Positions 3,801 through 53,721 of a stretch of DNA of 64,000 nt are shown here, piece by piece. This stretch comes from an uncultured Candidatus Saccharibacteria bacterium. Its GTDB lineage: Bacteria > Patescibacteriota > Minisyncoccia > SW-4-49-11. A program made the position numbers and the translations under genes. The notes beneath the pieces are model-generated. The model did not search any database. It was not told the origin of the DNA and saw only the letters and a program-made list of their open reading frames with translations. The stretch covers positions 64,628 to 128,627 of the forward strand of contig CAZWIJ010000002.1 in the NCBI GenBank assembly GCA_964633865.1. Direction: 5' to 3'. The stretch's first letter is position 1, and every line of letters begins with the position of its first letter.

Positions 3801-4619
3801 AAAAATTATGATTTTGACCGCCAAAAAATAATAGGAAATTATATTGTAGATTTTTATTGTACAAATTGTAATGTAATTATTGAAATTGATGGAAGTAGCC
3901 ATAATGACAAACAAGAATATGATACAGAAAGAGATTTATATTTAGAAAGTTTAGGACTTACTGTTATTCATATACTAGACACTGATGTACTTAATAATTT
4001 AGATTCTGTAATGGAAATGTTATCAAGTCACCCAGCCTTAGAAAACAAACTAACTCACATTTCAGATACTTCCTCTCAAACCACCCCGTCCTTTGGGCAC
4101 CCCTCCATCGGAGGGGAATTACTAACTTTCACTCCCCTAGATTTACTAGATTATATCTATGCTGTACTCCATAATCCAGACTATAGAGATAAATACAAAG
4201 AATTCCTAAAAATAGATTTCCCAAGAGTTCCTTATCCAGAAGATCAGGAGAAATTTTGGCAACTTGTCAAATTAGGTGGAGAGTTAAGAGAACTTCATTT
4301 ATTAGAGTCTCCCAAAGTGAATGAATATATCACACAATATCCAATTGATGGAGATAATATAGTTAGTAAAGTTAGATTTGAAAAGTCTATTTCTGAAGAT
4401 GTAGGCAAAGTCTATATCAATGAAACTCAATATTTTGATAATGTACCGATTATAGCTTGGGAATTCTACATTGGAGGTTATCAACCAGCTCAAAAATGGC
4501 TAAAAGACAGAAAAAACAAAACTTTATCTATTGATGATATTCTTCACTACCAAAAAATTATTGTTGTTCTTTCAAAAACAAATCAGATTATAGGGGAGAT
4601 AAGTGCGTTGCCGATATAA
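855..4619 (+). CDS. Type IIG/IIL single-chain restriction-modification enzyme (N-terminal PD-(D/E)xK nuclease + gamma-class N6-adenine DNA methyltransferase + TRD), MmeI-like architecture, carrying an in-frame DUF559/Vsr-like endonuclease domain insertion
   Basis: N-terminal D..E.K motif (NAPDFLFKK...IAYAECKD). Motif X G.YYTP (GVYYTPKAVVSFMV). SAM motif I (ILDPAVGTGTFLD). Motif IV NPPY (VVLGNPPYAVSS) about 118 aa downstream, as in MmeI/HsdM gamma-class MTases. 1254 aa. A DUF559 signature (AKELRK...YDFDRQKIIGNYIVDFYC...IIEIDGSSH...RD..LESLGLTVIH) lies inside the C-terminal third. Confidence 0.8.
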   Translation: MQEIIQNYLNNIQSLYQSGNAREHAYRPAFQTLIENLIVDIQVINEPSYTGGNAPDFLFKKGDIPIAYAECKDINIDINSKSVQAQAQRYVDAFGKILLTNYYDFQIMIENQDPVFFSIAKLENNKFILDEENLDQNLNLLRDYLSPTPRTIRSSQKLAEIMANKARILRDTAKASLTENPNSDIQAQYQTFKQILINDLSEDDFADMYAQTLVYGLFVARYHDSTLPTFSRYEAQDLLPQTNPLLKKFFGHIAGTDYDPKIAWLVDSLVEAYLSTNVAELMHTEFTSKEKDPILHFYETFLSKYDSLLRKSRGVYYTPKAVVSFMVRAVDQILQAKFNLPQGLADTSVIEYEKKIQANDARTKDNLKKIKIQIPKVQILDPAVGTGTFLDEVIKQIHTKFRGQEGLWSSYVSNHLINRLHGFELMMTSYTMAHLKLGITLDELGYKGKDRLSVWLTNSLEEGVHEVPNLFMSQWLTEESNQASRIKSEMPIMVVLGNPPYAVSSSNKGESITKLIQDYKKDLNERKINLDDDYIKFIRFAEDQIEKTGYGIVAMITNNSFIDGITHRQMRKHLMQTFDQIYILDLHGNSKKKETAPDGSADQNVFDIMQGVSINIFVKNKSELQKLPSKKDLAEIYHSEIFGKRQAKFDFLNQINFNSINWQKLNPLGPYYFFVPKDFKDQIEYEKGFKVSELFEVNTSGVKTHHDKELVSTSKFNTEYNLSYNYRAFDNHFINYDRNLVERDRYNVMKHFILGDNLGLIFRRTIENTKNWHHIHITKNMMDINFLSAQTYNFPLYLYTQASSAELKTSSQTTPPFGHPSIGGELKTYSNSSFGGENSSSLKGWTAEQNGVVKKPNLNLEIVKEIEGKLGLRFIHDLENKPPRLTGTPPTEGNNNIYSNFSKGEENSPSLKGWQSQNDGVVSSEDDKPQSVGIVKNETTRNTLNYKSLPFNHKLQDRAKELRKAGNLAEVVFWNQVKSKKFKNYDFDRQKIIGNYIVDFYCTNCNVIIEIDGSSHNDKQEYDTERDLYLESLGLTVIHILDTDVLNNLDSVMEMLSSHPALENKLTHISDTSSQTTPSFGHPSIGGELLTFTPLDLLDYIYAVLHNPDYRDKYKEFLKIDFPRVPYPEDQEKFWQLVKLGGELRELHLLESPKVNEYITQYPIDGDNIVSKVRFEKSISEDVGKVYINETQYFDNVPIIAWEFYIGGYQPAQKWLKDRKNKTLSIDDILHYQKIIVVLSKTNQIIGEISALPI
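3282..3332 (+). repeat. GC-rich palindromic repeat R1 copy 1 (tcctctcaaaccaccccgccctttgggcacccctccatcggaggggaatta)
   Basis: near-identical copy at 4080-4130; contains hairpin cccctcc/ggagggg; translated in-frame as SSQTTPPFGHPSIGGEL. Confidence 0.85.
3360..3412 (+). repeat. GC-rich repeat R2 copy 1 (…ttctttgaaggggtgg…cagaacggggtagt)
   Basis: similar copy at 3555-3620; translated as NSSSLKGWTAEQNGVV vs NSPSLKGWQSQNDGVV. Confidence 0.7.
3496..3537 (+). repeat. degenerate R1-like GC-rich hairpin repeat (accaccccgccttacaggcacccctccgacggaggggaata)
   Basis: shares the ccaccccgcc…gcacccctcc..cggaggggaa core with R1 copies. Confidence 0.65.
3555..3620 (+). repeat. GC-rich repeat R2 copy 2
   Basis: aligned by eye to 3360-3412. 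Confidence 0.7.
4080..4130 (+). repeat. GC-rich palindromic repeat R1 copy 2
   Basis: 50/51 identical to 3282-3332. Confidence 0.85.
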
Positions 4620-10502: not shown

Positions 10503-11729
10503 ATGAAACAATCACTATTAGCTACCAAAACAAGAAAAGATATTAGCTCTCAAGAGAAATCTCTAAATGCAAAATTATTACTTAAAGCTGGATTTATTGA
10601 TCAACTTATGGCAGGAGTCTACTCTTATTTACCCCTAGGTTATAGGGTTATTCAAAAAATAGAAAAAATTGTGCGAGAAGAAATGAATGCTATTGATGGA
10701 CAAGAAATCCTAATGCCAGCAATTCACCCAAAAGAAGTTTTAGAGACTACAGGAAGATGGGATACTATTGATGTTTTATATAAATTTCAGACTTTTTATA
10801 CCAAAATGGAAGTAGCTCTTGGATCTACTCATGAAGAAATTATTACCCCCCTCACCAAAAAATTTATCAAATCTTATAAAGACTTACCTCTTTCTCTATA
10901 CCAAATACAAACCAAATTCCGTGACGAAAAAAGAGCTAAATCTGGTATTTTGAGAGGTAGAGAATTTATTATGAAAGATCTATATTCATTTCACACAGAT
11001 GAACAAGATTTGAACAAATATTATGACAAAGCTATAATAGCTTACCAAAATATATATAAAAGACTAGGCATAGGAGACCAAACCTACAAAGTTTATGCTT
11101 CTGGAGGTACTTTCTCCAAATACTCTCATGAATTTCAAACTTTATCAGAAATAGGAGAAGATACTGTTTATATTTGTGATAAATGTCATATAGGAGTAAA
11201 TCAAGAAATTATATCTGATCAACCAAATTGTCCTGAATGTAGTGGAGATTTGCATCAAAAATCTGCCATTGAAGTTGGGAATATATTTAAGTTAAATACC
11301 AAGTTTTCTGATGCTTTCTCTCTTAAATTCACGAATCAAGATGGATCGAATAAATCCGTTATTATGGGTTGTTATGGAATTGGAATAAGTAGATTAATGG
11401 GAACTTTAGTAGAAATTTTTGCAGAATCAGAGAATAAAATGGTTTGGCCTAAATCAGTATCTCCTTTCCAAGTTCATTTGATAGGACTTAACCTTAATGA
11501 TGATTTAATTTTGGAAAAAGCAAATCAAATTTATAATAAGTTTTTAGAGCTAAATATTGAAATTTTATTTGATGATAGAAATGAAAGTACAGGTAAAAAA
11601 TTAGCTGATGCCGACTTGATTGGAATACCTAATAGATTAATTATTAGCAAAAAAAGTTTAGAAAATGGAGGGATTGAATTTGAGAATAAAATTTATAGTA
11701 TAGATAATATTCTTGATATTATAATCTAA
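10503..11729 (+). CDS. proS: prolyl-tRNA synthetase (class II, short form lacking editing domain)
   Basis: N-terminal LLATKTRK…AGFI..LMAGVYSYLPLG…MPAIHP…TGRWD ProRS signature; Zn-ribbon insert CDKC…CPEC; 408 aa. Confidence 0.85.
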   Translation: MKQSLLATKTRKDISSQEKSLNAKLLLKAGFIDQLMAGVYSYLPLGYRVIQKIEKIVREEMNAIDGQEILMPAIHPKEVLETTGRWDTIDVLYKFQTFYTKMEVALGSTHEEIITPLTKKFIKSYKDLPLSLYQIQTKFRDEKRAKSGILRGREFIMKDLYSFHTDEQDLNKYYDKAIIAYQNIYKRLGIGDQTYKVYASGGTFSKYSHEFQTLSEIGEDTVYICDKCHIGVNQEIISDQPNCPECSGDLHQKSAIEVGNIFKLNTKFSDAFSLKFTNQDGSNKSVIMGCYGIGISRLMGTLVEIFAESENKMVWPKSVSPFQVHLIGLNLNDDLILEKANQIYNKFLELNIEILFDDRNESTGKKLADADLIGIPNRLIISKKSLENGGIEFENKIYSIDNILDIII

Positions 11730-23502: not shown

Positions 23503-23608
23503 ATAGAAAACCAGTATTCCCAATTCCTTAATGTATTTTTTATAATCTAGGTTGTAATTATCTCCAAATTGACCAAATCTTCTACTACAACTGAGTCATT
23601 ATTTAGTA
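23503..23608. repeat. 106-bp direct repeat, copy 1 (degenerate duplicate of the 3' end of the histidine-phosphatase gene)
   Basis: ~88 % identical to 24292-24397. On the minus strand it encodes the remnant …LNLLNNDSVVVEDLVNLEIITT*, versus the authentic …LSLNNDSAVVEDLVNVEIITT*. Confidence 0.8.
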
Positions 23609-24180
23609 AATTCAAAGCTCTTATAAATTTTTTCAAAGGTTTGTAAATATTCAGTTAGATCTTGTTTCGATTTTTCACTTTCAAGAGATACAAGAGGGAA
23701 TGACTTAATAACAACTATTTGTTCATTATTTTTATATATTATATATCTAGTCTCAGAAGTGTATACACTTTCTTTTTTAACAATAACCACTTCTCCAACT
23801 AAATCATTATTTGAAGTTACTTGATTTCTTTCTATATTTAAGTTATCAAAATTTTTTTCTAATTTTTGATATTCATCTTCTGTTAATACATTAAGATAGA
23901 AACTACCTTGCCCTTCAGAAAGCATTAGTCCTAATTTAGATTCTTCTGAATTAACTCTTTGATTTAGATACTCTTCTAACTTTAAATCTTTAGGATATTG
24001 TATTTTAAATCCAAATTCTTCATTTTGATAAGTCTCCCAACCTGTAATTTCATCCACGAATGGATTTTGAATCACATTTTTCAATACTGATGATTCATTA
24101 TCAGTATTTTGTAACTTTAAAAAATAGTAACCTCCTCCGATTAATGCCAAAATTAACAATGGTATTAAAAAAATTTTCAT
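23599..24180 (-). CDS. hypothetical secreted/membrane-anchored protein
   Basis: 193 aa, N-terminal signal/TM MKIFLIPLLILALIGGGYYF; the gene lies between the two 106-bp repeat copies. Confidence 0.5.
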   Translation of the reverse strand: MKIFLIPLLILALIGGGYYFLKLQNTDNESSVLKNVIQNPFVDEITGWETYQNEEFGFKIQYPKDLKLEEYLNQRVNSEESKLGLMLSEGQGSFYLNVLTEDEYQKLEKNFDNLNIERNQVTSNNDLVGEVVIVKKESVYTSETRYIIYKNNEQIVVIKSFPLVSLESEKSKQDLTEYLQTFEKIYKSFEFTK

Positions 24181-24291: not shown

Positions 24292-24397
24292 ATAGAAATC
24301 CAATATTCCATACTCCTTAGTATATTTTTTTATAATCTAAGTTGTAATTATCTCCACATTTACCAAATCTTCTACTACAGCTGAGTCATTATTTAGT
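24292..24397. repeat. 106-bp direct repeat, copy 2 (authentic 3' end of histidine phosphatase gene + downstream)
   Basis: see copy 1. Confidence 0.8.
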
Positions 24398-24924
24398 GAA
24401 AGCTTTATAATAGCTCCATTTCCCAAAGATTCAACCGTTGTATGCTTAATTATTTCACGAAAGATACATCTAATCGGTCCTCCATGAGTTATTACCGCAA
24501 TTTCATTATAAGGTGATGTGGTTAATTCTTGAAAAGATTTTAGAACTCTATCTCTAAAATCCCAATATGTCTCAGCTCCATCATATGCAGTATCTTTATT
24601 TACCAAGACTTCTCCTAATCTCCTGTATTCTTCTTCAGGTTGATCTTTCCCTAGTTCTAAGAAAGCCCCATAGATATCTTGTTCTGCAAGATCTTCTAGG
24701 ATATGGACTGGAACATCATATTTACTTTGAATTATCTTTGAAGTTTCTTGTGCCCTTATTTTAGGACTTGTATAGATAGCATCAATATTTTTTAACAAAG
24801 TATTATTAGCTACTTCTTGTGCTTGTTGTAATCCCATAACTGTTAAATTATCATCATAATCTCCATCATATTTTTGTTTGATGTCTGACTCACTTTCTCC
24901 ATGACGAATTAAATATATATTCAT
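24337..24924 (-). CDS. histidine phosphatase (phosphoglycerate mutase family) protein
   Basis: N-terminal catalytic motif IYLIRHGESE (RHG); 195 aa. Confidence 0.8.
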   Translation of the reverse strand: MNIYLIRHGESESDIKQKYDGDYDDNLTVMGLQQAQEVANNTLLKNIDAIYTSPKIRAQETSKIIQSKYDVPVHILEDLAEQDIYGAFLELGKDQPEEEYRRLGEVLVNKDTAYDGAETYWDFRDRVLKSFQELTTSPYNEIAVITHGGPIRCIFREIIKHTTVESLGNGAIIKLSLNNDSAVVEDLVNVEIITT

Positions 24925-29695: not shown

Positions 29696-30358
29696 TTATA
29701 GTCTTTCAGCATAGACTTTTTGACTAAATTCTTCTGCTATATCTTCTAATTTGTCTGACTTTTTATATTGGAATTTTTCAGAATAAAAATTAAAATCAGA
29801 CTCCATCCATAATGGAATTTCTCCATTGTAATATGGCTTGGATAAAAAATCTCCTTCAATAGTTTCTTTTTCCCAAATGTCAGCGGTCATTCCAGCAAGA
29901 GCCAGAATCAAATGTTTGTGGTGAGTTCCTCCCATACGATTTTTTGGTAGAAGAACATAATATTTGTTTGTATCTTCAAAACCTAATATTATCACTGTAC
30001 CACGAGTGGTTTCATAAGCTAAGAAATTTTCATCCCAATATGATTTACATACATTGTATGAAGTTCCATAACCATATCCAGCTTTTTCATTTTCTAAGAA
30101 TTCTTGATGTAGATCTTTCTGTCTTTTGATTAAAAATTCCAAACCTTTTTTCCAACCTTCACGAAAGTTAGAACCAGAATTAAATTTTTCGAAAAAAGCA
30201 AATTTATCTTGGGTTAAATCAAATTTAATATAATTATCTAAATTTTCATATAAACTTTTTAAATCTAAAACAGAAATACTTGAAACAGAGGCATTAAGAT
30301 AAGTAGTCATAATTTTTTTAAAGTGCAAATTGATTAACAACAGAAATAACCATATCAT
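29696..30358 (-). CDS. hypothetical protein (likely start MTTYLN at 30307)
   Basis: ORF with coding-like composition; followed by cccgc/gcggg hairpin terminator at ~29650-29690. Confidence 0.4.
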   Translation of the reverse strand: MIWLFLLLINLHFKKIMTTYLNASVSSISVLDLKSLYENLDNYIKFDLTQDKFAFFEKFNSGSNFREGWKKGLEFLIKRQKDLHQEFLENEKAGYGYGTSYNVCKSYWDENFLAYETTRGTVIILGFEDTNKYYVLLPKNRMGGTHHKHLILALAGMTADIWEKETIEGDFLSKPYYNGEIPLWMESDFNFYSEKFQYKKSDKLEDIAEEFSQKVYAERL

Positions 30359-30452: not shown

Positions 30453-31088
30453 TTATTCTATGATATAAAGTTCTGATAATAAATCATCAAGTTCTTTTAG
30501 ATTAGAGAATTCATTTTGGATAGAATATATTAATAGATTCAAATCTTGCTCTTTATTATTTTTGGGAGCTTTCTGATCATACAAATATACAGTTTTATCG
30601 AAATCTATTAGGTATGGGTTCCACTCTGTTCCTCCAAAATTAATACCTATACAGATATTTCTTGGGGTTAAGTCTCCATGGATAAATCCTAATTGCCAGA
30701 AATGATTTATTCTAGCATTAATAGATTTGAATAATTCTTGCAGGTCATATAAAGGAACTATTCCTTCTAAGAACCCTTGAATATATTCAACAAGAGTTGC
30801 TCCATTATTTATCTTTTTGATAATTATAGATTTAGGATTATCAAAGACATCAGATTCCAAATTACATTTAGGAATAAAATGTAAATGTAGTTTACCTGCC
30901 AAAGAATATATTTGATATTCTTTGCTCACACCTTGATCTTTTGGCAAATCTTCTTCGAGATCACATTTAATTATACAATTATTCCATGTAAGTAAAATTT
31001 TTGATTTTTTACCTTTCTCTGATCTTCTTACGAAGACATCTTGTTCACCAACCAAATTATAACTATTTAAAAAATTTACTTTTTTCAT
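30453..31088 (-). CDS. small protein-kinase-like protein (Bud32/RIO/Kdo-WaaP-like), tandem copy 1
   Basis: catalytic-loop-like HGDLTPRNICIG and DFG-like LIDFDKT. Start set to MKKVNF at 31088 by alignment to the paralogue and the upstream promoter; the computed ORF extends to 31160. Confidence 0.5.
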   Translation of the reverse strand: MKKVNFLNSYNLVGEQDVFVRRSEKGKKSKILLTWNNCIIKCDLEEDLPKDQGVSKEYQIYSLAGKLHLHFIPKCNLESDVFDNPKSIIIKKINNGATLVEYIQGFLEGIVPLYDLQELFKSINARINHFWQLGFIHGDLTPRNICIGINFGGTEWNPYLIDFDKTVYLYDQKAPKNNKEQDLNLLIYSIQNEFSNLKELDDLLSELYIIE

Positions 31089-31119
31089 AGTACCCAATCC
31101 AAAATTAAAGAACTTTATA

Positions 31120-31147
31120 ATTATACTATAAAATTTAAAAATGTCAA
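31120..31147 (-). promoter_or_regulatory. sigma70-like promoter (TTGACA-16-TATAAT) for kinase-like gene copy 1
   Basis: perfect -35 and -10 hexamers on minus strand ~30 nt upstream of ATG 31088. Confidence 0.45.
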
Positions 31148-31199
31148 TAATGTTTTGCATAAAAAAAATCCCACCTATATGTTAGGTGAGAAAATAGAT

Positions 31200-31832
31200 T
31201 TAGTCTATAATATAAAGTTCTGATAATAGATTATCCCTGTCTTGTAGATTCGGGAATTCATTTTGGATAGAATCTATTAATAGATTCAAATCTTGCTCCT
31301 TATTATTTTTGGGAGTTTTTTTATCATAAGAATAAATTGTTTTATCAAAATCTATCAAGTATGGATTCCATTCCGTTCCTCCAAAATTAATACCTATACA
31401 GATATTTCTTGGGGTTAAGTCTCCATGGATAAATCCTAATTGCCAGAAATGATTTATTCTAGCATTAATAGATTTGAATAATTCTTGCAGGTCATATAAA
31501 GGAACTATTCCTTCTAAGAACCCTTGAATATATTCAACAAGAGTTGCTCCATTATTTATCTTTTTGATAATTATAGATTTAGGATTATCAAAGACATCAG
31601 ATTCCAAATTACATTTAGGAATAAAATGTAAATGTAGTTTATTAGTAATGGAGTATATCTGAAATTCTCTAGATACTCCTTGATTTGATGGTAGTATTTC
31701 AAGATCAGATTTAATAATATACTGATTACCTGTTAGTAAAATTTTTGAGTTTTTACCCTTCTCTGATCTTCTAACGAAGACTTCTTGTTCACTGATTAGA
31801 TTATAACTTTTTAAGAAATTTACTTTTACCAT
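31200..31832 (-). CDS. small protein-kinase-like protein, tandem copy 2 (central ~260 nt identical to copy 1)
   Basis: same HGDLTPRNICIG/LIDFDKT motifs; 31392-31650 is an exact nucleotide match to 30653-30910. Confidence 0.5.
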   Translation of the reverse strand: MVKVNFLKSYNLISEQEVFVRRSEKGKNSKILLTGNQYIIKSDLEILPSNQGVSREFQIYSITNKLHLHFIPKCNLESDVFDNPKSIIIKKINNGATLVEYIQGFLEGIVPLYDLQELFKSINARINHFWQLGFIHGDLTPRNICIGINFGGTEWNPYLIDFDKTIYSYDKKTPKNNKEQDLNLLIDSIQNEFPNLQDRDNLLSELYIID

Positions 31833-31862
31833 AATAGAAATCCAAATTTAAAGAACTATATA

Positions 31863-31890
31863 AGTATACCTGAAATTAAAAAAATGTCAA
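31863..31890 (-). promoter_or_regulatory. sigma70-like promoter (TTGACA-16-TATACT) for kinase-like copy 2
   Basis: minus-strand -35 consensus at 31885-31890. Confidence 0.35.
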
Positions 31891-31941
31891 TATATTTTTA
31901 CAAAAAAAGACCACTCTATCAAGGTGATAGGTGGTCTAAAT

Positions 31942-32625
31942 TTAAATTACTGTGATTTTATCCTCCATAGCTCGGATTAGCTTGGAAGGACTTTCGCCCC
32001 AATTATCAAATAGACACCATAGGGCATCTTTGATATCAGTAAAATCATCCTCCTGTGTGGGAGTACACCCACGGGAATAGCCATTATTCCAGCCCCATTC
32101 TTCATCATTGGAGGAATGAGAAGAAGATGAAAAGTCAATTAGAAAAACCTTAAACTCATTTTTTTCATCTAATCCTACGACCAGATTTCTTAAGTGTAAG
32201 TCCCGATGAGTAAACCCTTCCTCCCAGAAACTGTTTAAGACTGTTCCAACTTTTGAAAAGATTTCTATCATAATTTTTTCAGGAATTTCTCCCTGTAAAA
32301 AAGCAATAATGTAATCTTCGAATGCTGCCCCACTGTTAATCTTTTCAAGGTGGAGACCGTAGTCGGTTCCTTCTTCGAGATAACATTTTGGAGCAAGGTC
32401 TAAACCTTCTAATAATTCGTATATTTGATACTCCCAAGAGATGAGATCATCCCCTGGTAAATCTTTTTTAACTACCACATCTTCCCCAAAAAGGGAAAGA
32501 GTGGATTTATGACCAAATGCAGCACGAATGGCAAATGTATCTTTTCCAGACACTTTTTGATAAATGTCTAGATTAAAATTATAAACAGATTTAGAAACAG
32601 ATTTTTTAAAAGTAACAGTAGCCAT
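31942..32625 (-). CDS. small protein-kinase-like protein, divergent paralogue (copy 3)
   Basis: canonical HRDLHLRNLVVG catalytic loop and LIDFSSS (DFG-like); 227 aa. Confidence 0.5.
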   Translation of the reverse strand: MATVTFKKSVSKSVYNFNLDIYQKVSGKDTFAIRAAFGHKSTLSLFGEDVVVKKDLPGDDLISWEYQIYELLEGLDLAPKCYLEEGTDYGLHLEKINSGAAFEDYIIAFLQGEIPEKIMIEIFSKVGTVLNSFWEEGFTHRDLHLRNLVVGLDEKNEFKVFLIDFSSSSHSSNDEEWGWNNGYSRGCTPTQEDDFTDIKDALWCLFDNWGESPSKLIRAMEDKITVI

Positions 32626-32881
32626 AATTAACCTCTAACCTCGGGATAAGTGTATAAAGATGCTCCGAGGTAAGCTAGATACCTATATATAAGATATACA
32701 ACTTACCTCAGACCAAGTCTACTTACAAATACCTTTAGTCAGGATATTATAACAGATTAACTTGTGAATGTTCACTATGAGAATTTCTTATCTTGACTAC
32801 TTAGTTCTTATTGATTGCTAGATATTATAAGCTATTTATACTCTTAAGTAGTCTCTCTCATTCCTCTCATATTATGTACAT

Positions 32882-33560: not shown

Positions 33561-34982
33561 ATGGATGCCAAAAGTAATCAAAGAGTATATATCAGAGATT
33601 TGTCTCAACATAAAAATCAAATAGTAAATATTCAAGGTTGGATCAATACAAGAAGAGATCAAGGGAAAATGATTTTCTTTGATTTTCGTGATATAACTGG
33701 AATTGTACAAGGTGTGGTTTTACCAAAAAGTGAATGTTTAGAAATAGCAAAGACCACTAAAGAAGAATTTGTAGTAGAAATCCAAGGTAAAGTAAATCCA
33801 AGACCAGAGAGAAATATTAAAGAAGGTGTTTTGAATGGAGATATTGAGCTAGAAATTCTTGAGATTACAATCTTAAATCAATCTAGGACTCTTCCTTTCC
33901 CTATTGAAGGAGATACAAAAGAAATAAATGAACTCATTAGATTAAAACATAGATATCTTGATCTTCGTAGCCAAAGAATGCGAAAAAATATAATTAATCG
34001 TTCCAAAGTCCAAAAATTTATTCGTGATTATCTTATCAAAAAAGATTTTATTGAGATTGAAACTCCCCTATTATCTGCGCCAACTCCTGAAGGCTCAAGA
34101 TCTTTTGTAGTGCCTAGTAGAATTTATAGAGATAATTTTTATTCCTTACCTCAGTCACCCCAACAGTATAAACAACTCTTGATGGTGGCTGGTTTTGAGA
34201 AATACTTTCAATTAGCAAGATGTATGCGAGACGAGGATACCAGAGGAGATAGACAACCAGAATTTACTCAATTAGATATGGAAATGTCTTTTGCCACGGA
34301 AGAAGAAATCATGCAATTGAATGAAAAATTATTGATTGAAATTGTAAACAATCTATACCCAGAGAAAAAAATTCAACAAATTCCTTTTCCCAGAATGACT
34401 TATAAAGAAGCTATGGATAAATATGGAAATGATAGACCAGATATTAGAGATGATAAATCTGATGATAATCTTTTAGCTTTTCTTTGGGTCACTGATTTTA
34501 ATATGTTTGAGAAACCTGAACAAGATAATCCTGATGAAGTGACAGAGTGGACTTTTACTCATAACCCTTTCTCCAAACCTCGGGATGAACATTTTGATGA
34601 TTTTATGAACAAAAAAAATATTGATAAGATCCTCACAACTCAATACGATATTACTCTTAATGGCTTTGAAATTGGTGGTGGAAGTATCAGAAATCATTCG
34701 GCTGAGGCTTTGAAAAAAACTTTTGAGATTATGGGGTATTCAGAAGAGAAAATTCAATCTAACTTTGGACATATCTTGGATGCTTTAGAGTTAGGAGCTC
34801 CTCCACATGGTGGAATTGCTTGGGGGTTTGATAGATTGATGATGATTTTGGAAAATGAACCGAATATTAGAGAAGTTATTCCTTTTGCAAAAACTGGAGA
34901 TGGTAAAGATCTTATGATGAATGCTCCAGCTAATATTTCAATTAAGCAAAAAATAGAATTAGGGATAAAGATTGAGAAGTAG
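33561..34982 (+). CDS. aspS: aspartyl-tRNA synthetase, archaeal/eukaryal-type (no GAD insertion)
   Basis: N-terminal OB fold (FFDFRDITGIVQ). Class IIb motif 1 LPQSPQQYKQLL. FTQLDMEMSF is Asp-specific. Motif 3 GAPPHGGIAWGFDRLMM. 473 aa. Confidence 0.85.
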   Translation: MDAKSNQRVYIRDLSQHKNQIVNIQGWINTRRDQGKMIFFDFRDITGIVQGVVLPKSECLEIAKTTKEEFVVEIQGKVNPRPERNIKEGVLNGDIELEILEITILNQSRTLPFPIEGDTKEINELIRLKHRYLDLRSQRMRKNIINRSKVQKFIRDYLIKKDFIEIETPLLSAPTPEGSRSFVVPSRIYRDNFYSLPQSPQQYKQLLMVAGFEKYFQLARCMRDEDTRGDRQPEFTQLDMEMSFATEEEIMQLNEKLLIEIVNNLYPEKKIQQIPFPRMTYKEAMDKYGNDRPDIRDDKSDDNLLAFLWVTDFNMFEKPEQDNPDEVTEWTFTHNPFSKPRDEHFDDFMNKKNIDKILTTQYDITLNGFEIGGGSIRNHSAEALKKTFEIMGYSEEKIQSNFGHILDALELGAPPHGGIAWGFDRLMMILENEPNIREVIPFAKTGDGKDLMMNAPANISIKQKIELGIKIEK

Positions 34983-35066: not shown

Positions 35067-35942
35067 TTATTCTTTCTCAATTTCTTCCTCTACCTTTCTT
35101 TTAGCTTCTTCTAATAAGTCTTTACTCTCTTTTCTTAATTTATAACTTTCTTGGACTTTTTCAGAGATTTGCTTTTGTATTTGGAGTTTGATAAGAGGGA
35201 TTTTGATTGATTCTAATTCTGTTTTTGAAATTGCAGTCAAAATTGTCCCCTTTGATCCTCTCTGTAAAAGTTCTTGAATAACGAGAGTTTTAAATAAAAT
35301 CAATAAAGTTTCAGAGTTTATTTTTTCTGAATTTAAAACGAAAAATCCAGTTGAGCAAATAGAATTATCAAATTCTTTTTCCACCAATGCACATGAACTT
35401 AAAGAACCTTCAATAGAAGAAATAATTAAATCGTTTGTATTGATTTTTCTTCTCGCCCTGCTTGGTAAATCTTTTCCAAATTCTTCTTGATAATCTGATA
35501 TATATCCCTGACTTGAAATATTAGAAAGTGCTAAATATTTATATTTTTGATAAGCTTTGGGTGTATAGTTTTTATCTTTAAAATTTATCGCATTTTTCAC
35601 TAAATCCCATCCGCCCTCATATTCTTCAATTTTCTTAATGATCTCGGCATATTTCGGCTGAAAATATTCGCTATCGTATCGGTGGGCTTCTTCGATTTCT
35701 TTTTTGGTGGTACTAAAAGTAAGTTCGTGTTTGACTTCATAATCCACAAGTCCAAGTTCTGCCAAAAGCAATTCTTTAGCTTCACGATAGAGTTGTTTGG
35801 ATTGAGTTTGTTTTTGATGTGACCTTAAAACAAATTCATCAATTATTTTATGAAAATTATCTTGAAAAATTGGAACTGGAATTTTCTTTAGATCTGGTAA
35901 ATTAAATCCTTTTTGAATTGCACCTCTTTCATTTCTCATCAA
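35067..35942 (-). CDS. hsdS: Type I R-M specificity subunit HsdS, C-terminal part (central conserved region + TRD2 + C-terminal coiled coil); separated from the N-terminal part by one in-frame TAG
   Basis: starts with the conserved central motif GAIQKGFNLPDLKKIPVPI; TRD2 has DLIISSIEGSLSSCALV; same frame as the upstream ORF 35955..36446. Confidence 0.7.
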   Translation of the reverse strand: MMRNERGAIQKGFNLPDLKKIPVPIFQDNFHKIIDEFVLRSHQKQTQSKQLYREAKELLLAELGLVDYEVKHELTFSTTKKEIEEAHRYDSEYFQPKYAEIIKKIEEYEGGWDLVKNAINFKDKNYTPKAYQKYKYLALSNISSQGYISDYQEEFGKDLPSRARRKINTNDLIISSIEGSLSSCALVEKEFDNSICSTGFFVLNSEKINSETLLILFKTLVIQELLQRGSKGTILTAISKTELESIKIPLIKLQIQKQISEKVQESYKLRKESKDLLEEAKRKVEEEIEKE

Positions 35943-35954
35943 TAATGATTTTCC

Positions 35955-36446
35955 CTATTTTGTATCAAGAAAGATCATTAAAAATTCTGGATTTATTTTA
36001 TTTGAACGAAAAACTGTACTTTTACAGCTAAAGATTGCTGGACCAAAAGAATCTCTATATATTGCAACATTGCCAAGAGTTCCAACAACAGTAATTAAAA
36101 CATCATTGTTTTTTAAGTGATATTTGGGTAATGAATCAAATTTTTCTTTGTTAACTGCTGAATTATCAACATCACTCAAAACTCCATTTTTAATATCTTT
36201 TCCTCTGATATATTTATATTGTTTATCTTCAACATAATCCTCTACCTTTACAGTTGATCCAAATGGACCAATAATAAATTTACCTAAGTTTTCTAGATAT
36301 AAAAAATCTGAATTAGTAATTAATTTTTCAGCAGTCAAATTAAAAGGCTTAAAATACTCTGCATCATATCTCCGAGCTTCAAGGACTTCTGTATATTTTA
36401 TGTAACTTATTTGAGGCATAGTTTCTTTTAAGTGGTAAATTTGCAA
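35955..36446 (-). CDS. hsdS: Type I R-M specificity subunit HsdS, N-terminal part (TRD1)
   Basis: HsdS TRD motif NDVLITVVGTLGNVAIY; terminates with TAG 12 nt before the in-frame continuation. Confidence 0.7.
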   Translation of the reverse strand: MQIYHLKETMPQISYIKYTEVLEARRYDAEYFKPFNLTAEKLITNSDFLYLENLGKFIIGPFGSTVKVEDYVEDKQYKYIRGKDIKNGVLSDVDNSAVNKEKFDSLPKYHLKNNDVLITVVGTLGNVAIYRDSFGPAIFSCKSTVFRSNKINPEFLMIFLDTK

Positions 36447-36455
36447 CTAACATTT

Positions 36456-37556
36456 TTATTTAATTATATCCAATAAATCTTCAAAGAAATAGGTTTTATT
36501 TCTTTCTTTATTATTATGATGAATAATCAAATTTTGAGATAAATAATGCAAGATACGAAAAGTTGCATCTTTTTTTATTCCCGTTTGCCTTGAAAAATCA
36601 GCAGAGTCAAAAATAGGTACTGAGAATAAGTAATCTAAGACTTTAATAGAATTTTTTGGAGTAGGAATATCAATAATTTTATCTTTTAATTGTTCATATA
36701 GAGCAAGAATTTTTTTAACTTTTTCAATGTTTTTTATGGACTGTTCTTCTACTGCTATAAGAAAAAATTTAATCCAACTTTCCCAATCCCCATTTCTTGA
36801 TATGTTTTGTAGATAATCATAATATTCATCACGATGAAGCTCAAAATACTCACTCAAATAAAACATTGGAGAAGATAGAACTTTTTTGTAATACAAGAAT
36901 AATGGCATTAAAATTCTTCCTGTTCTTCCGTTTCCATCCCAAAAAGGATGAATAATTTCAAATTGAGCATGAACAATTGCAAGTTGAACTATTTGATCTT
37001 TTTCATCAGAATGAATATATTTTTCAAAATTAGAAAAATACTCTGCAATATTTTGTGGTTCTGGTGGAATATAGCTGGCTCCTTCTACTCCCAATCCTTG
37101 TTTTCCAATAAAAACAGAACCTGTTCTAAAATTTCCAGGATTTTTCCCTTCTCCCCTTGTCCCCTTTAAAAGAAGCTTATGTATTTCTTTGATCAATTGT
37201 CCTGTTAAAGGGATTGTTTCGAGTTTTGTAATTGCTACACTCATGGCATGCCTATAATTAATAATCTCTTGAATATCTTCATATTTTTCAGTTTTTTCCT
37301 TTGGGTTGGCATCAAATTGTAAAACTTCTTCAAGAGTTGCTTGAGTCCCTTCAATTTTAGATGATAAAACGGCTTCTTTTGTTGATAGAGGAGATAAAAG
37401 AACTCTTCCATTTGGGATACTTTGAAGAAAAGCATCAAACTTCGCAACTGCTCTATTTGCTGTTCCTATATGAGCAATAAAAATATCCCCATTTAATTTT
37501 TCTAACGGTAAATTATCTGGTTTGAATGGTTTCATATTTTTTAAATTATAAATCAA
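36456..37556 (-). CDS. Fic family protein (AMPylase/Fido domain)
   Basis: canonical Fic motif HPFWDGNGRTGR; 366 aa; located between hsdM and hsdS. Confidence 0.85.
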   Translation of the reverse strand: MIYNLKNMKPFKPDNLPLEKLNGDIFIAHIGTANRAVAKFDAFLQSIPNGRVLLSPLSTKEAVLSSKIEGTQATLEEVLQFDANPKEKTEKYEDIQEIINYRHAMSVAITKLETIPLTGQLIKEIHKLLLKGTRGEGKNPGNFRTGSVFIGKQGLGVEGASYIPPEPQNIAEYFSNFEKYIHSDEKDQIVQLAIVHAQFEIIHPFWDGNGRTGRILMPLFLYYKKVLSSPMFYLSEYFELHRDEYYDYLQNISRNGDWESWIKFFLIAVEEQSIKNIEKVKKILALYEQLKDKIIDIPTPKNSIKVLDYLFSVPIFDSADFSRQTGIKKDATFRILHYLSQNLIIHHNNKERNKTYFFEDLLDIIK

Positions 37557-39661
37557 CTATTCCAAAAACTTAATTTCTGTTCTTTCGCCCATTTTTCAAA
37601 AGCTAATGCTATTTCTCTAAGATCATGCTTTTGAATAAGATGATTATGCTCATCGAGCTTTCTCTCTCCCTTCTCATTGGTTTCATACATTTCTATTCCT
37701 GAATTATCTTTTCCGCTATTCTCACTTACTGCCATGAAAATCTCATAATCCTCTTGTTGTGAATTATAGCTTGGAGAATTAGGATCTTCATCCCATTTTT
37801 GGATAAACAATACTGATGTTTTAGTTCCTGTATGTGGTTTAAAGGTGTTTCCATCTAATCCTACTACTGCCACAAGTCTTGCTTTTTCCATAATAAAGCT
37901 TCTAATCTTTTCATCGCTAGTATTATTAAATCTTCCTTGTGGGAGAACAACTGCCATTCTTCCTCCTTCTTTGAGAAAATCTAGATTTCTCTCGATAAAC
38001 AATACATCTCTTGAGACTTTATTTGCTTTTTTTCCTTTACTGTCAAAAGCGACTTCATAATTCGATATTAATCTACTATCTTTAATATCTCCTGCAAACG
38101 GAGGATTTGCCATTACAATATCAAAATTAAATTCTTTTGGGTTCTGTCGATTTTTTGCTAAATCTAGCATTCGATAATATCCTTCAAGATATGTTTTTGC
38201 CCATGAGCTATCTTTTAGTTTTTCTTCCCATCTTGTATAATCTAGTGTATTCAAATGCAATACATTGGTTTTTCCATCTCCTGCTATCATATTGAGGGTT
38301 CTTGCTACTCGAACAGATTTTTCATCAAAATCAATTCTAAATACTTTATGCACATAATCTTTTTGCTCATTGGTAAGTTTTTGATTAGAAAAATTATGAA
38401 AATTTGCTTTTCCTTGATTGACTAATTTTTGCCATACATTAAATAATGTATGTACAGTAAATCCACAACTTCCACAAGCGGTATCTATCATGTATTCATG
38501 TGATTGTGGGTTCATCATATAAACACACATATCTATAACATTTCTTGGGGTGAAATATTGCCCTTTTTCTCCTTTTGCTGACTTATTGACTAAATATTCA
38601 AATGCTTCATCTATCACCTGCAAATTAGAATTAAAGAGCTTTACATTTTGCAAAAATCCTACACAAATTTGGAGATGGTTTTCATCGGTTATTCTGAGTG
38701 GTTCACCTTGCTCAAAAATTCCTTGCCATTTTGATTTGGCTTTTCTATAGAGTTCATTGATGACTTCTTTTGTATGATGTGCATCTCCACGGCTTCTAAA
38801 TTCTAATTTTCTATAATCTTCATTATCAATTTGTTCGAGAATTTGTTTATCTGTAAGGGTGGGGTTTTGCTTCTTGATAATTTTAAACTGTGTCTCAATA
38901 TTTACCCTATCATCAGCACTTTCCATTTCGTCATAAAGTTTGGTAAATATAAGTTTAAATACTTCTTCAAATACATCAACTCCTGCTCCTGATAAAACTT
39001 CATCTTCTATTTCTTGAATCAAAGATTTAAGAGATTTTCGCTCTTCTGCAAGTCTATCTTTTTGCATAAGCTCAAGATAGGTAAATCGTTCATTCTTTAC
39101 ATCATCAATGGTTTCATGTACTTTTGGAATATCTGAAAGAGGTTCAAAATAATTAGGATCAAGTCTTTCATAATAATCAATCTCTACTCCATTAGTCCAG
39201 ATTGCAAGTGGAGCACCTGTAGCATTGGTATAACTTTTAAGCTGATCTTTTCCATCTTTAGCACTATGTTTTTTAATCTCAAGCACACAATAAATACTTG
39301 TTTTATCCTGTTTGTTCAATATTACAATATCTGCAAATTTCTTTTCTCTTCCAAAACTTACAGTATATTCAACATCCAGTAAATCAACAGAATAACCATA
39401 TTCATTGATAAGTTTATCTAACATTAGTTGTCTCACTATCTCTTCAGGCTTTACTTGGATGTCTTTATTTCTTTTAAGACACTTTAGGAAGAGCTTGTCT
39501 CCTTTTTCAAAAATACTATTTTCAATTTTATCGATACTTTCAGGTGAAAAAATAGTAAGATCATATTTACCATTTGATTTAATAAGTTGTGAAAGTTGTC
39601 TATGAACCATATTTTTTATAATCCTTAAATTTAAACTTACCCCCATTATACCACTTTCCAA
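37553..39661 (-). CDS. hsdM: Type I R-M N6-adenine DNA methyltransferase HsdM with ~200-aa N-terminal restriction-endonuclease-like (HsdR_N/PD-(D/E)xK-like) extension
   Basis: motif X QYFTPRNVIDMCV, motif I IDTACGSCGF, motif IV VMANPPFAGD; N-terminal ADIVILNK…YCVLEIKK nuclease-like motif; 702 aa. Confidence 0.85.
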   Translation of the reverse strand: MESGIMGVSLNLRIIKNMVHRQLSQLIKSNGKYDLTIFSPESIDKIENSIFEKGDKLFLKCLKRNKDIQVKPEEIVRQLMLDKLINEYGYSVDLLDVEYTVSFGREKKFADIVILNKQDKTSIYCVLEIKKHSAKDGKDQLKSYTNATGAPLAIWTNGVEIDYYERLDPNYFEPLSDIPKVHETIDDVKNERFTYLELMQKDRLAEERKSLKSLIQEIEDEVLSGAGVDVFEEVFKLIFTKLYDEMESADDRVNIETQFKIIKKQNPTLTDKQILEQIDNEDYRKLEFRSRGDAHHTKEVINELYRKAKSKWQGIFEQGEPLRITDENHLQICVGFLQNVKLFNSNLQVIDEAFEYLVNKSAKGEKGQYFTPRNVIDMCVYMMNPQSHEYMIDTACGSCGFTVHTLFNVWQKLVNQGKANFHNFSNQKLTNEQKDYVHKVFRIDFDEKSVRVARTLNMIAGDGKTNVLHLNTLDYTRWEEKLKDSSWAKTYLEGYYRMLDLAKNRQNPKEFNFDIVMANPPFAGDIKDSRLISNYEVAFDSKGKKANKVSRDVLFIERNLDFLKEGGRMAVVLPQGRFNNTSDEKIRSFIMEKARLVAVVGLDGNTFKPHTGTKTSVLFIQKWDEDPNSPSYNSQQEDYEIFMAVSENSGKDNSGIEMYETNEKGERKLDEHNHLIQKHDLREIALAFEKWAKEQKLSFWNS

Positions 39662-52791: not shown

Positions 52792-53721
52792 ATGTGTAAA
52801 TCAGGAAAGAATGGTTTTTGGAAAACATCTATTCAATTAAAAAATAATCAGAAGTTAAAGATACCTCATACAATCAGGAATTTAGATTCCATTTGTATTT
52901 CAAATCTCATATCACCTGGAATTGATATATCCTCCAAAAACTTCTTTTTAGATGATTTATCTATACCTAAAAGTCATAAAGAACCCATTACTATTAGTAC
53001 AAAATCACAATATGTTGAAATAGATGAGTTGGATGCAAAATTTTGTAATAAATTTTTATTCAACTTTAAAAATACTTATGAGCTGTGTATTAATGCATTT
53101 AATACAGCTAAACATTTATGTTTTAATAATAAGTTTATAATTGGAAACAGTCTTAAATCTTTAAGAATAAAAAATAGAATATTACATCCTGAATATTTAG
53201 TTCTGAATGAAAACTTAGAGAGTCTATATATTCAAGAATTAAAATCTTGTAAAAATTTAAAGTTAAACTCTAACTTAAAGAAACTTGAGATATATTATTT
53301 AAAGACAGCTTATGGTTTAATTTTAAATGATAATTTAGAAAAACTAATTCTTCCAAATATAACTACAGCTTATGGGTTAACTTTAAATGATAATTTAGAA
53401 AGACTAATTCTTCCACATCTAATTTCTGTTAAGAATCTAATTTTAAATGAAAAATTAAAATTCTTAAAGCTAGATAGTCTAGTTAATGCTAAAAATCTCA
53501 AGTTAAATGAAAAATTAGAAATTCTAGAACTAAATGGAATCGAAAATGGAGAGGGACTAGTTTTTAACGATAAATTGAGAATTGTTCAATTTAAGAGCTT
53601 AAAAACTGCTAAAAACTTAATTTTACCTCGAAGCATTGAAAAAGTAATTATACCTAAAGTACCTTACTTATCAGCCTTGAGAAAAAATCATCCAAAAGCC
53701 CAATTTATAATTTTAAAATAA
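52792..53721 (+). CDS. leucine-rich-repeat (BspA-like LRR) protein
   Basis: multiple ~20-aa L..L.L..N…L..L repeats (NLKLNSNLKKLEIYYL, LILNDNLEKLILPNI, LTLNDNLERLILPHL…); tandem 60-bp DNA repeats at ~53290-53420. Confidence 0.55.
   Translation: MCKSGKNGFWKTSIQLKNNQKLKIPHTIRNLDSICISNLISPGIDISSKNFFLDDLSIPKSHKEPITISTKSQYVEIDELDAKFCNKFLFNFKNTYELCINAFNTAKHLCFNNKFIIGNSLKSLRIKNRILHPEYLVLNENLESLYIQELKSCKNLKLNSNLKKLEIYYLKTAYGLILNDNLEKLILPNITTAYGLTLNDNLERLILPHLISVKNLILNEKLKFLKLDSLVNAKNLKLNEKLEILELNGIENGEGLVFNDKLRIVQFKSLKTAKNLILPRSIEKVIIPKVPYLSALRKNHPKAQFIILK

Follow-up and report, generated by a model that had tools for sequence, protein, structure and literature searches.

The 64,000-nt stretch of contig CAZWIJ010000002.1 analysed here (the window, to whose positions all coordinates refer) contains three tandem genes for protein-kinase-like products, which follow one another along the minus strand in the order copy 3, copy 2, copy 1. 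We found that these genes encode members of a rare family of compact, apparently active kinases, that copy 2 has overwritten part of copy 1, and that gene number at the locus changes from strain to strain, tentatively suggesting an accessory role in virus-host conflict. The window is a segment of a bacterial chromosome with a GC content of 28.5%, encoding DnaE, TypA, SufB, ProRS, AspRS and one tRNA. An origin from the candidate phyla radiation (CPR) is supported by its DnaE, which is 58-69% identical to those of Candidatus Paceibacteria/Parcubacteria metagenome-assembled genomes (MAGs) and ~45% identical to those of other Patescibacteria. A metagenome carrying the locus, IMG 3300025034, is listed as that of a groundwater geyser in Utah (PMC10159854). 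The three genes are:

31942-32625, minus strand: copy 3, mini-kinase of 227 aa, with the catalytic loop HRDLHLRNLVV and residues K53, E65, H140-R-D142, N147 and D164 (in IDFS); defined by its open reading frame (ORF), Pfam scan, AlphaFold2 model and Foldseek search
31200-31832, minus strand: copy 2, mini-kinase of 210 aa starting MVKVNFL, with HGDLTPRNI and IDFD; donor of a conversion tract
30453-31088, minus strand: copy 1, mini-kinase of 211 aa starting MKKVNFL, with HGDLTPRNI and IDFD; recipient of the conversion tract

A preliminary description of this DNA had given product lengths of ~210-230 aa, which hold for all three genes, provided that the longer open frame of copy 1, which extends to 31160 (235 aa), is not taken as real. 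The promoter of copy 1 falls within that extension, so that the true start is the ATG at 31088; the resulting 211-aa start parallels that of copy 2 and is matched by one JGI gene call (P0156). Copy 3 is only ~33% identical to copies 1 and 2 and, with 36.4% GC vs 28.5% for the window, appears compositionally foreign. Independent assemblies (L001, L003) show the same three-gene arrangement, indicating that it is not an assembly artefact.

Each copy was also said to have its own promoter and hairpin terminator, and this agrees with our predictions, in which the main promoters scored 11-12/12 and hairpins lie 3' of all three genes:

32910-32882, minus strand: sigma-70-like promoter of copy 3, TTGACA-17-TATAAT with extended TG, 12/12
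32774-32746, minus strand: weaker alternative promoter of copy 3, 10/12
32626-32881, minus strand: structured leader of copy 3, ~256 nt from promoter to start codon, folding better than shuffled sequences (z = -3.94)
~31937-31901, minus strand: intrinsic terminator of copy 3, a 13-bp bulged hairpin followed by U7 (fold z = -5.4), 91% conserved in strain L094
31890-31863, minus strand: sigma-70-like promoter of copy 2, TTGACA-16-TATACT, 11/12
31191-31169, minus strand: intrinsic terminator (hairpin) of copy 2, kept in strain L094 even though copy 2 is absent there
31147-31120, minus strand: sigma-70-like promoter of copy 1, TTGACA-16-TATAAT, 12/12
30445-30423, minus strand: intrinsic terminator (hairpin) of copy 1

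The three kinase genes are thus predicted to be separate monocistronic units, each with its own promoter and terminator. Promoter-like sites in this AT-rich region numbered 33, as compared with 25.9 ± 4.5 in shuffled sequences, an overall enrichment that is not significant. The leader of copy 3 forms a long 14+6-bp hairpin whose 3' arm contains ACCUC, complementary to the GAGGU Shine-Dalgarno sequence just downstream, and may act as a translational switch. It did not match any Rfam family and is kept in strain L094, where it precedes another gene.

Residue numbers follow copy 3, and conservation refers to an alignment of 45 family members with a mean identity of ~25%. R34, K53, E65, P79, D142, N147, I163 and D164 are invariant in 45/45 sequences, and G38 and H140 nearly so. 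The complete phosphotransfer set is therefore kept, comprising the beta-3 Lys, the alpha-C Glu, H-x-D-x4-N and the Asp at the DFG position, while the Gly-rich loop (GxGxxG) is replaced by a family-specific R-x3-G. A profile of the family matched human Bud32 (PRPK) with E = 8e-16, aligning HgDLHlrN and IDFG on HGDLTTSN and IDFG of PRPK. The catalytic loops (HGDLTPRNI twice, HRDLHLRNLVV once) and DFG-like motifs (IDFD, IDFD and IDFS) noticed earlier are thus in register with those of a known kinase.

In the Pfam scan, of the families originally named for comparison, only Kdo/WaaP (PF06293) passed its gathering score of 21.3 bits, with 28.5, 29.7 and 25.9 bits for the three copies, and it was the sole Pfam family above its cutoff for the window proteins; the match spans only model positions ~93-193 of 207, that is, the C-terminal half. 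PF00069 was not reached (16.6-22.8 bits vs a gathering score of 31.7), and RIO1 (PF01163, gathering score 22 bits) gave no match to the three window proteins at E<=10. Matches to Pkinase, APH and TCAD9 were all sub-threshold; that to TCAD9 (PF19974) reached 24 bits in copies 1 and 2, vs a cutoff of 40, over ~30-35 residues around the catalytic loop. Across the 45 members, Pfam matches were to Kdo (35), APH (26), Pkinase (25), TCAD9 (17), ABC1 (13) and RIO1 (6, at E<=1e-3). Scores for curated equivalogs were far below their cutoffs, with 25-28 bits vs 125 for Bud32 (TIGR03724), 25-27 vs 142 for KdkA (NF002475) and 17 vs 170 for RfaP (NF011703); Bud32 membership was also judged by the PRK14879 models, and equivalog cutoffs were not reached.

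Rio, Bud32 and KdoK form a cluster of kinase families, and an insert between kinase subdomains II and III is common to KdoK and Rio (Kannan et al. 2007, PMC1821047). The gap from K53 to E65 is 11 residues, and the insert occurs in 0/45 members. Taken together, the motifs and profile matches place the family in the Rio-Bud32-KdoK cluster of the protein-kinase-like (PKL) superfamily, outside every curated member. The Bud32/RIO/Kdo-kinase-likeness first proposed therefore stands at the level of the superfamily cluster, and not as membership of Bud32, KdkA, WaaP or RIO. Although they share this cluster with RIO kinases, the window proteins do not have the RIO N-terminal helices, winged helix-turn-helix or flexible loop; unlike eukaryotic-type kinases (PF00069), they contain neither a GxGxxG loop nor an activation loop with APE.

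An AlphaFold2 model built from the 45-sequence alignment is a bilobal kinase with a predicted local distance difference test (pLDDT) score of 93.8 and a predicted template modelling (pTM) score of 0.89; a run on five close sequences only (pLDDT 48) was discarded in its favour. The N-lobe is short, with two helices, beta strands bearing K53 and then alpha-C bearing E65. The C-lobe is minimal and ends past alpha-F and one more helix; the post-DFG segment is short, and the model has no activation loop, APE motif or alpha-G to alpha-I helices. In Foldseek searches of the PDB, the first ranks were taken by Bud32 (4ww7, 4wwa, 8k20_B), WaaP (6dfl) and PRPK (6wqx), with E from 1e-6 to 1e-5. The top Bud32/PRPK matches were from yeast, plant and human, TM-scores of these and of WaaP were 0.5-0.6, and ordinary protein kinases ranked after them; in all, 387 kinase chains were matched at E<=1e-3. 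The kinase identity first read from motifs thus agrees with a Kdo/WaaP match above cutoff, the PRPK profile match and a confident bilobal model with the motifs at catalytic and DFG positions, and we conclude that the proteins are, as modelled, kinase-fold members of the PKL superfamily.

Copies 1 and 2 share a tract of identical DNA:

30628-30894: 267-bp tract in copy 1, codons ~66-154, the longest exact match
31375-31641: matching 267-bp tract in copy 2, 100% identical to that of copy 1

A shared stretch diverging at both ends had been described before, with coordinates ~10-25 bp off and a length of ~260 bp. On either side of the tract, the aligned sequences show 75% and 82% identity (mean 78%), and the chance of an identical run of 268 sites is ~3e-30. 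The tract covers residues ~66-154, from the end of alpha-C through the hinge, alpha-D and alpha-E to the catalytic loop. Synonymous divergence (dS) between the two copies was 0.56-0.82 in the flanks, whereas the tract gave only two synonymous differences, both at its 3' edge. By these distances, copies 1 and 2 are old paralogues, excluding the recent duplication that had been offered as one of two explanations and leaving the other, gene conversion.

The direction of conversion was apparent from copy 1 of strain L094, a relative with ~95% identity. Against copy 1 of the window, it showed 0 synonymous and 1 nonsynonymous differences in the flanks but a dS of 0.36 within the tract; against copy 2 of the window, its tract showed a dS of 0.42, about the distance between paralogue flanks (0.56-0.9). 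Because copy 1 of L094 matches that of the window outside the tract and differs inside, it represents the unconverted state, showing a recent conversion from copy 2 to copy 1 in the window strain. The ratio of nonsynonymous to synonymous divergence (dN/dS) in the unconverted flanks was 0.18-0.24, indicating that both paralogues are held by purifying selection. With the tract in common, differences between the paralogues are confined to the first ~65 residues and the post-DFG segment. In kinase structures in general, the front of the N-lobe and the post-DFG regions are expected to face the substrate, and the paralogue-variable regions may thus correspond to those that contact it.

Copy-number variation, which the preliminary description had proposed to look for, was seen in metagenomic contigs, which contained at least three alleles of the locus. 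The three-gene allele occurs in several assemblies 100% identical to the window, and many shorter contigs end within the 267-bp repeat, as a true repeat predicts. A two-gene allele was present in nine contigs (ENA, JGI and Logan assemblies) whose flanks are 98-99% identical to the window. It consists of copy 3 followed by a single 210-aa gene made up of the 5' part of copy 2, the tract and the 3' part of copy 1, with unchanged intergenic spacings of 110 and 95 nt. This fusion has the structure expected from an unequal crossover inside the tract. In two-gene-allele strains (L098/L099), the 3' part of copy 1 and the downstream 220-aa gene are only ~94% identical to the window.

The third allele, that of L094, retains copy 1 only, and unrelated ORFs replace copies 3 and 2:

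31221-32619 of the window, replaced by 2559-3797 of L094: segment with ORFs of 151, 84 and 131 aa

The leader and terminator of copy 3 are kept in L094, with an unrelated 147-151-aa ORF of 40% GC between them, and two small unrelated ORFs occupy the place of copy 2, before its kept terminator; the replacement is thus a swap at coding-sequence boundaries. We considered whether the new ORFs were degraded kinases and rejected this, because they gave no hidden Markov model (HMM) match and only noise in tblastn; Pfam scans of these ORFs gave no significant match and one faint, sub-threshold DUF5096. No frameshifts or stop codons were found in the kinase genes in >15 contigs. Rapid evolution, as originally suggested, therefore applies to gene content, which varies by strain, and not to protein sequence, with its dN/dS of ~0.2.

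Members of the family are few and unevenly spread over phyla and phages. When 1.84 billion cluster representatives were searched exhaustively with HMMER, 198 matched at E<1e-3 and 44 at E<1e-10, and the best matches were mostly stand-alone proteins of 200-260 aa; this search was used instead of a word-indexed homology search, which had found only 3 relatives with copy 2, 1 with copy 3 and 4 with the family profile. Members occurred in 1/50,697 phage records and 1/72,556 plasmid records, and copy 3 was not found in 185,579 GTDB species representatives. A pattern scan of metagenomes, swamped by the generic HGDLH pattern, gave one locus. All named sources besides the window are cyanobacterial or cyanophage: Euhalothece natronophila plasmid pEu1, a Halothece MAG, Aphanothece minutissima and Microcoleus phage My-WqHQDG. 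Database labels include Bud32, InaA/LPS kinase, RIO1-family kinase and hypothetical protein (one pEu1 paralogue is annotated by NCBI as 'RIO1 family regulatory kinase/ATPase'), and the family is neither described nor curated, its fold and chemistry being of a known kind. A neighbour-joining tree was unreliable, with saturated distances and undefined values (copies 1 and 2 paired in only 29/40 bootstrap replicates), and was used solely to show that array members are diverged paralogues.

Genomic context was readable for 12 loci, of which five, all cellular, adjoin CRISPR-cas genes (pEu1, L102, L107, L110 and L111). Plasmid pEu1 contains three adjacent family members of 173, 179 and 198 aa (HMM E from 1e-35 to 4e-49), located between two NERD+UvrD helicases matching C3a187, a type III CRISPR accessory family (Shah et al., PMC6546367), with cas1, cas2 and RAMP genes in the locus. 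Contig L102 contains two members, from different branches of the family, preceded by RAMP genes, a CRISPR-associated HTH-WYL gene (PADLOC E=1e-138) and an HD_4 hydrolase, and with BREX on the other side. Kinase neighbours are Csx3, NYN, HD_4, HTH-WYL and UvrD genes in L107; Cas1, Cas2, Cas_APE2256 and Fic genes in L110; and Cas1, AAA_33-WCX and RNase_T-nSTAND5 genes in L111.

A module of a Csx3-like gene, HTH-WYL, HD_4 (RelA/SpoT-type) and at least one mini-kinase recurs next to type III CRISPR genes in the unrelated contigs L102 (7969-11931) and L107 (5438-10630), whose WYL and HD_4 genes are 29% and 43% identical, respectively.

At four phage-like loci, the kinase is surrounded by small ORFs that lack annotation, and a giant ORF of 1,200 to >3,400 aa lies a few genes downstream of it:

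L009, 7932-12468: phage-like locus with giant ORF
L012, 10686-20447: phage-like locus with giant ORF
L105, 13681-17274: phage-like locus with giant ORF
L108, 8263-13065: phage-like locus with giant ORF

The giant ORFs of L009 and L012 are homologous (31% identity over 1,110 aa). A Pfam scan of L012 gave no match for its giant ORF, and none is on record for those of L105 and L108.

From the sequence evidence, we propose, with a probability of about 0.4, that these proteins are active phosphotransferases or ATPases with paralogue-specific targets that work in virus-host conflict and not in housekeeping. A conflict role is suggested by the differences in gene number between strains and the exchange of DNA between copies, and the exclusion of housekeeping, already favoured in the preliminary description, is supported by strain-level copy-number change, gene replacement and the rarity of the family. 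With bound Mg-ATP, the ~25-kDa cytoplasmic kinases would either transfer phosphate to a substrate or, like Bud32 and Rio, serve as substrate-gated ATPases. The paralogues of the array would combine a common catalytic core with different specificities, each recognizing its own target through its N-terminal and post-DFG regions. The 267-bp identity mediates the unequal crossover producing the allele that fuses copies 2 and 1. The family would have been acquired horizontally, and upon infection its members would phosphorylate phage or host proteins, like PD-T4-6, Stk2 or phage takeover kinases: cellular copies might defend by abortive-infection-type phosphorylation, a mode proposed for PD-T4-6 and Stk2, and phage-borne copies could be takeover or counter-defence enzymes. 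The occurrence of the family in CRISPR islands of cyanobacteria, on phage-like contigs and in a single CPR lineage suggests a conflict function absent from defence catalogues. The conflict reading also draws on the window neighbours of the kinases, which include PDC-S05/ORF6N, a SoFic-like Fic gene and genes of type I restriction-modification.

Several observations weigh against this proposal. The family is not covered by any PADLOC (v2) or PHROG model, giving weak, generic kinase matches only. The association with CRISPR is unquantified, since cyanobacteria are CRISPR-rich and the sample comprises 12 loci; two cyanobacterial loci lie in ordinary chromosomal settings, after an ABC transporter gene and after a flavodiiron gene; and no partner gene, sensor domain or effector domain is conserved across the examined loci. 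In the window, the closest defence-type genes lie at distances of 1.4 kb, where they form no more than a candidate system, and 2.4 kb, on the other side of AspRS, and the kinase sequences are under purifying, not diversifying, selection.

Known conflict-related kinases offer partial parallels. The single-gene anti-phage Ser/Thr kinases PD-T4-6 and Stk2, together with the kinase domains found in PglW and MkoA, are also protein-kinase-like enzymes of defence islands, with a weak HMM match in the catalytic loop (E from 2e-4 to 5e-4), but they measure 300-1600 aa and carry extra domains; the best PADLOC-DB v2 matches of the window kinases, to PD-T4-6 and MkoA, scored 15-19 bits across stretches of 50-90 residues and show generic kinase similarity only. 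TCAD9, the kinase-like domain of ternary conflict systems, shares weak matches with copies 1 and 2 and with 17/45 members, as well as a conflict-system context, although these matches are below the gathering cutoff and partner genes of a ternary system are absent. Two other candidates were rejected as relatives: CapK/CapS (PMC13373217) is an unrelated anti-sigma-type GHKL kinase of an immune operon, and C3a189, a 'kinase' accessory to type III CRISPR with a PADLOC model of 840 positions, was matched by copy 3 at E=0.035 only, so that the window proteins are not members.

A more specific version of the conflict proposal, somewhat unlikely as a whole, holds that stand-alone mini-kinases, frequently two or three diverged paralogues in a row, form a new, self-contained immune or counter-immune module beside type III CRISPR-Cas accessory genes of cyanobacteria and in early regions of cyanobacterial phages. 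The paralogues would then phosphorylate invader or host targets with different specificities, with their core kept uniform by conversion, and the copy in a CPR bacterium of a dark aquifer would reflect transfer across phyla.

Among the alternatives to a conflict role, we regard as unlikely that these proteins are WaaP/KdkA-type glycan kinases, or kinases of other small molecules, each paralogue acting on another surface-polymer sugar as WaaP and WaaY of the E. coli waa operon do. Such enzymes could alter phage receptors or the cell envelope, and waaP and waaY are a precedent for tandem kinase paralogues in one locus. This explanation fits the only Pfam match above its gathering cutoff (25.9-29.7 vs 21.3 bits), to a family that comprises KdkA, WaaP, WaaY and InaA and gave the commonest match among the 45 members (35/45, followed by APH with 26/45). 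WaaP (6dfl) was also among the best structural matches, and the proteins are of the size of WaaP and KdkA. However, the matching region falls in the C-terminal half of the Pfam model only, scores were >100 bits short of the equivalog cutoffs for KdkA and RfaP, and the 11 residues between K53 and E65 leave no subdomain II-III insert. Glycosyltransferase or lipopolysaccharide (LPS) genes adjoined the kinase in 0/12 loci, and the host is, from its DnaE, a Paceibacteria-like CPR bacterium. Members of this CPR group reportedly do not make LPS.

Another alternative is that the proteins are regulatory Ser/Thr/Tyr kinases of an ordinary sort, or ATPase switches, which serve normal cell physiology and were duplicated in tandem without any link to conflict. 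In its favour are the intact catalytic residues under purifying selection, a separate promoter for each gene, the structured leader of copy 3, which suggests regulation, and the operon-like surroundings of the two cyanobacterial members in ordinary settings. This alternative is nevertheless distinctly unlikely, because presence, absence and replacement of the genes vary between strains ~95-99% identical, members of the family are extremely few and scattered over phyla and phages, and no sensor domain, phosphatase or substrate partner is conserved.

Improbable, too, is that the proteins are Bud32-like ATPases acting on tRNA or on a Kae1/TsaD-type partner, in t6A or other RNA modification. Bud32/PRPK (TP53RK, the KEOPS kinase/ATPase) gave the best matches in sequence and structure, is likewise a protein of ~210-230 aa with a minimal bilobal fold devoid of activation loop or alpha-G to alpha-I, and shares the motifs HGDL(T/H)xxN and IDFG/D; copies 1 and 2 have the very HGDLT motif of Bud32, and several automatic annotations give this name to relatives. 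On the other hand, TM-scores were only 0.5-0.6, the equivalog score was far below its cutoff, and the window N-lobe opens with two helices and R-x3-G instead of the GAEA loop of Bud32. No Kae1/TsaD gene was found in the window neighbourhood or near any of the examined loci, and bacteria use TsaB and TsaE for t6A. Bud32 is universal in archaea and eukaryotes, whereas the window family occurs as multi-copy, strain-variable genes in bacteria and phages, which is incompatible with an essential single-copy function.

That the genes are decaying cargo of mobile elements, without current function, is highly improbable. In its favour are the loss of copies 3 and 2 from L094, the fusion of copies 2 and 1 in other strains and the foreign-looking GC content of copy 3, but catalytic residues, promoters, ribosome-binding regions, terminators and reading frames are intact, and dN/dS is ~0.2.

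CPR genomes are tiny, with much of their accessory proteome of unassigned role, and this kinase locus is readable in unusual detail, displaying three active-looking kinases, a gene conversion that is both dated and directed, and no fewer than three alleles that segregate in nature. Annotation pipelines mislabel this compact kinase family as Bud32 or LPS kinase. The link to cyanobacterial CRISPR islands and phage-like elements, the presence in a subsurface CPR bacterium and the resolved dynamics of conversion and copy number appear to be new. If the conflict role were true, a minimal, easily expressed kinase would be added to the immune and anti-immune enzymes, and gene flow would be documented between cyanobacterial mobile elements and CPR bacteria; if it were false, the locus would still be a clean natural case of concerted evolution limiting paralogue divergence to putative substrate-contact regions.

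The kinase array lies between AspRS and accessory genes that encode a 220-aa unknown protein, DUF6194 and an ORF6N protein matching the PADLOC candidate PDC-S05 (E=1e-112); past AspRS there is a type I methyltransferase / SoFic-like Fic / HsdS cluster. No CRISPR array was found in the window. The gene for the 220-aa protein (29696-30358), which immediately follows the kinases, is equipped with a promoter and a terminator of its own and shows a ~27-bp indel (about 30118-30145) with respect to contig L001, so this region seems to vary fast too. The type I restriction-modification-like cluster (35067-39661, minus strand) encodes an HSDR_N-N6_Mtase/Eco57I fusion of 702 aa, the SoFic-like Fic (PADLOC E=2e-116) and two separate HsdS-like ORFs (163 and 291 aa); an HsdR helicase gene was not evident in it.

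Other repeats were found in the window. GC-rich repeats of 54-80 nt, up to 96% identical and each with a CCCCTCC...GGAGGGG hairpin (3279-3412, 3485-3619 and 4068-4121), lie in a 1,254-aa ORF (855-4619; DUF559 and MAD2-like methyltransferase) of a genome otherwise of 28% GC. A 75-nt direct repeat (23536-23610 / 24326-24400, 93% identical) covers the 3' ends and downstream sequences of two adjacent minus-strand genes, a 193-aa gene of unknown function and a 195-aa His_Phos_1 gene, and may be a second small conversion or duplication. Tandem 60-nt (20-aa) repeats occupy 53297-53656 within a 309-aa ORF (52792-53721). Two aminoacyl-tRNA synthetases are compact: AspRS (33561-34982), at 473 aa, is short for a bacterial enzyme, and ProRS (10503-11729), of just 408 aa, aligns with the bacterial model in two separate segments, its editing insertion apparently missing.

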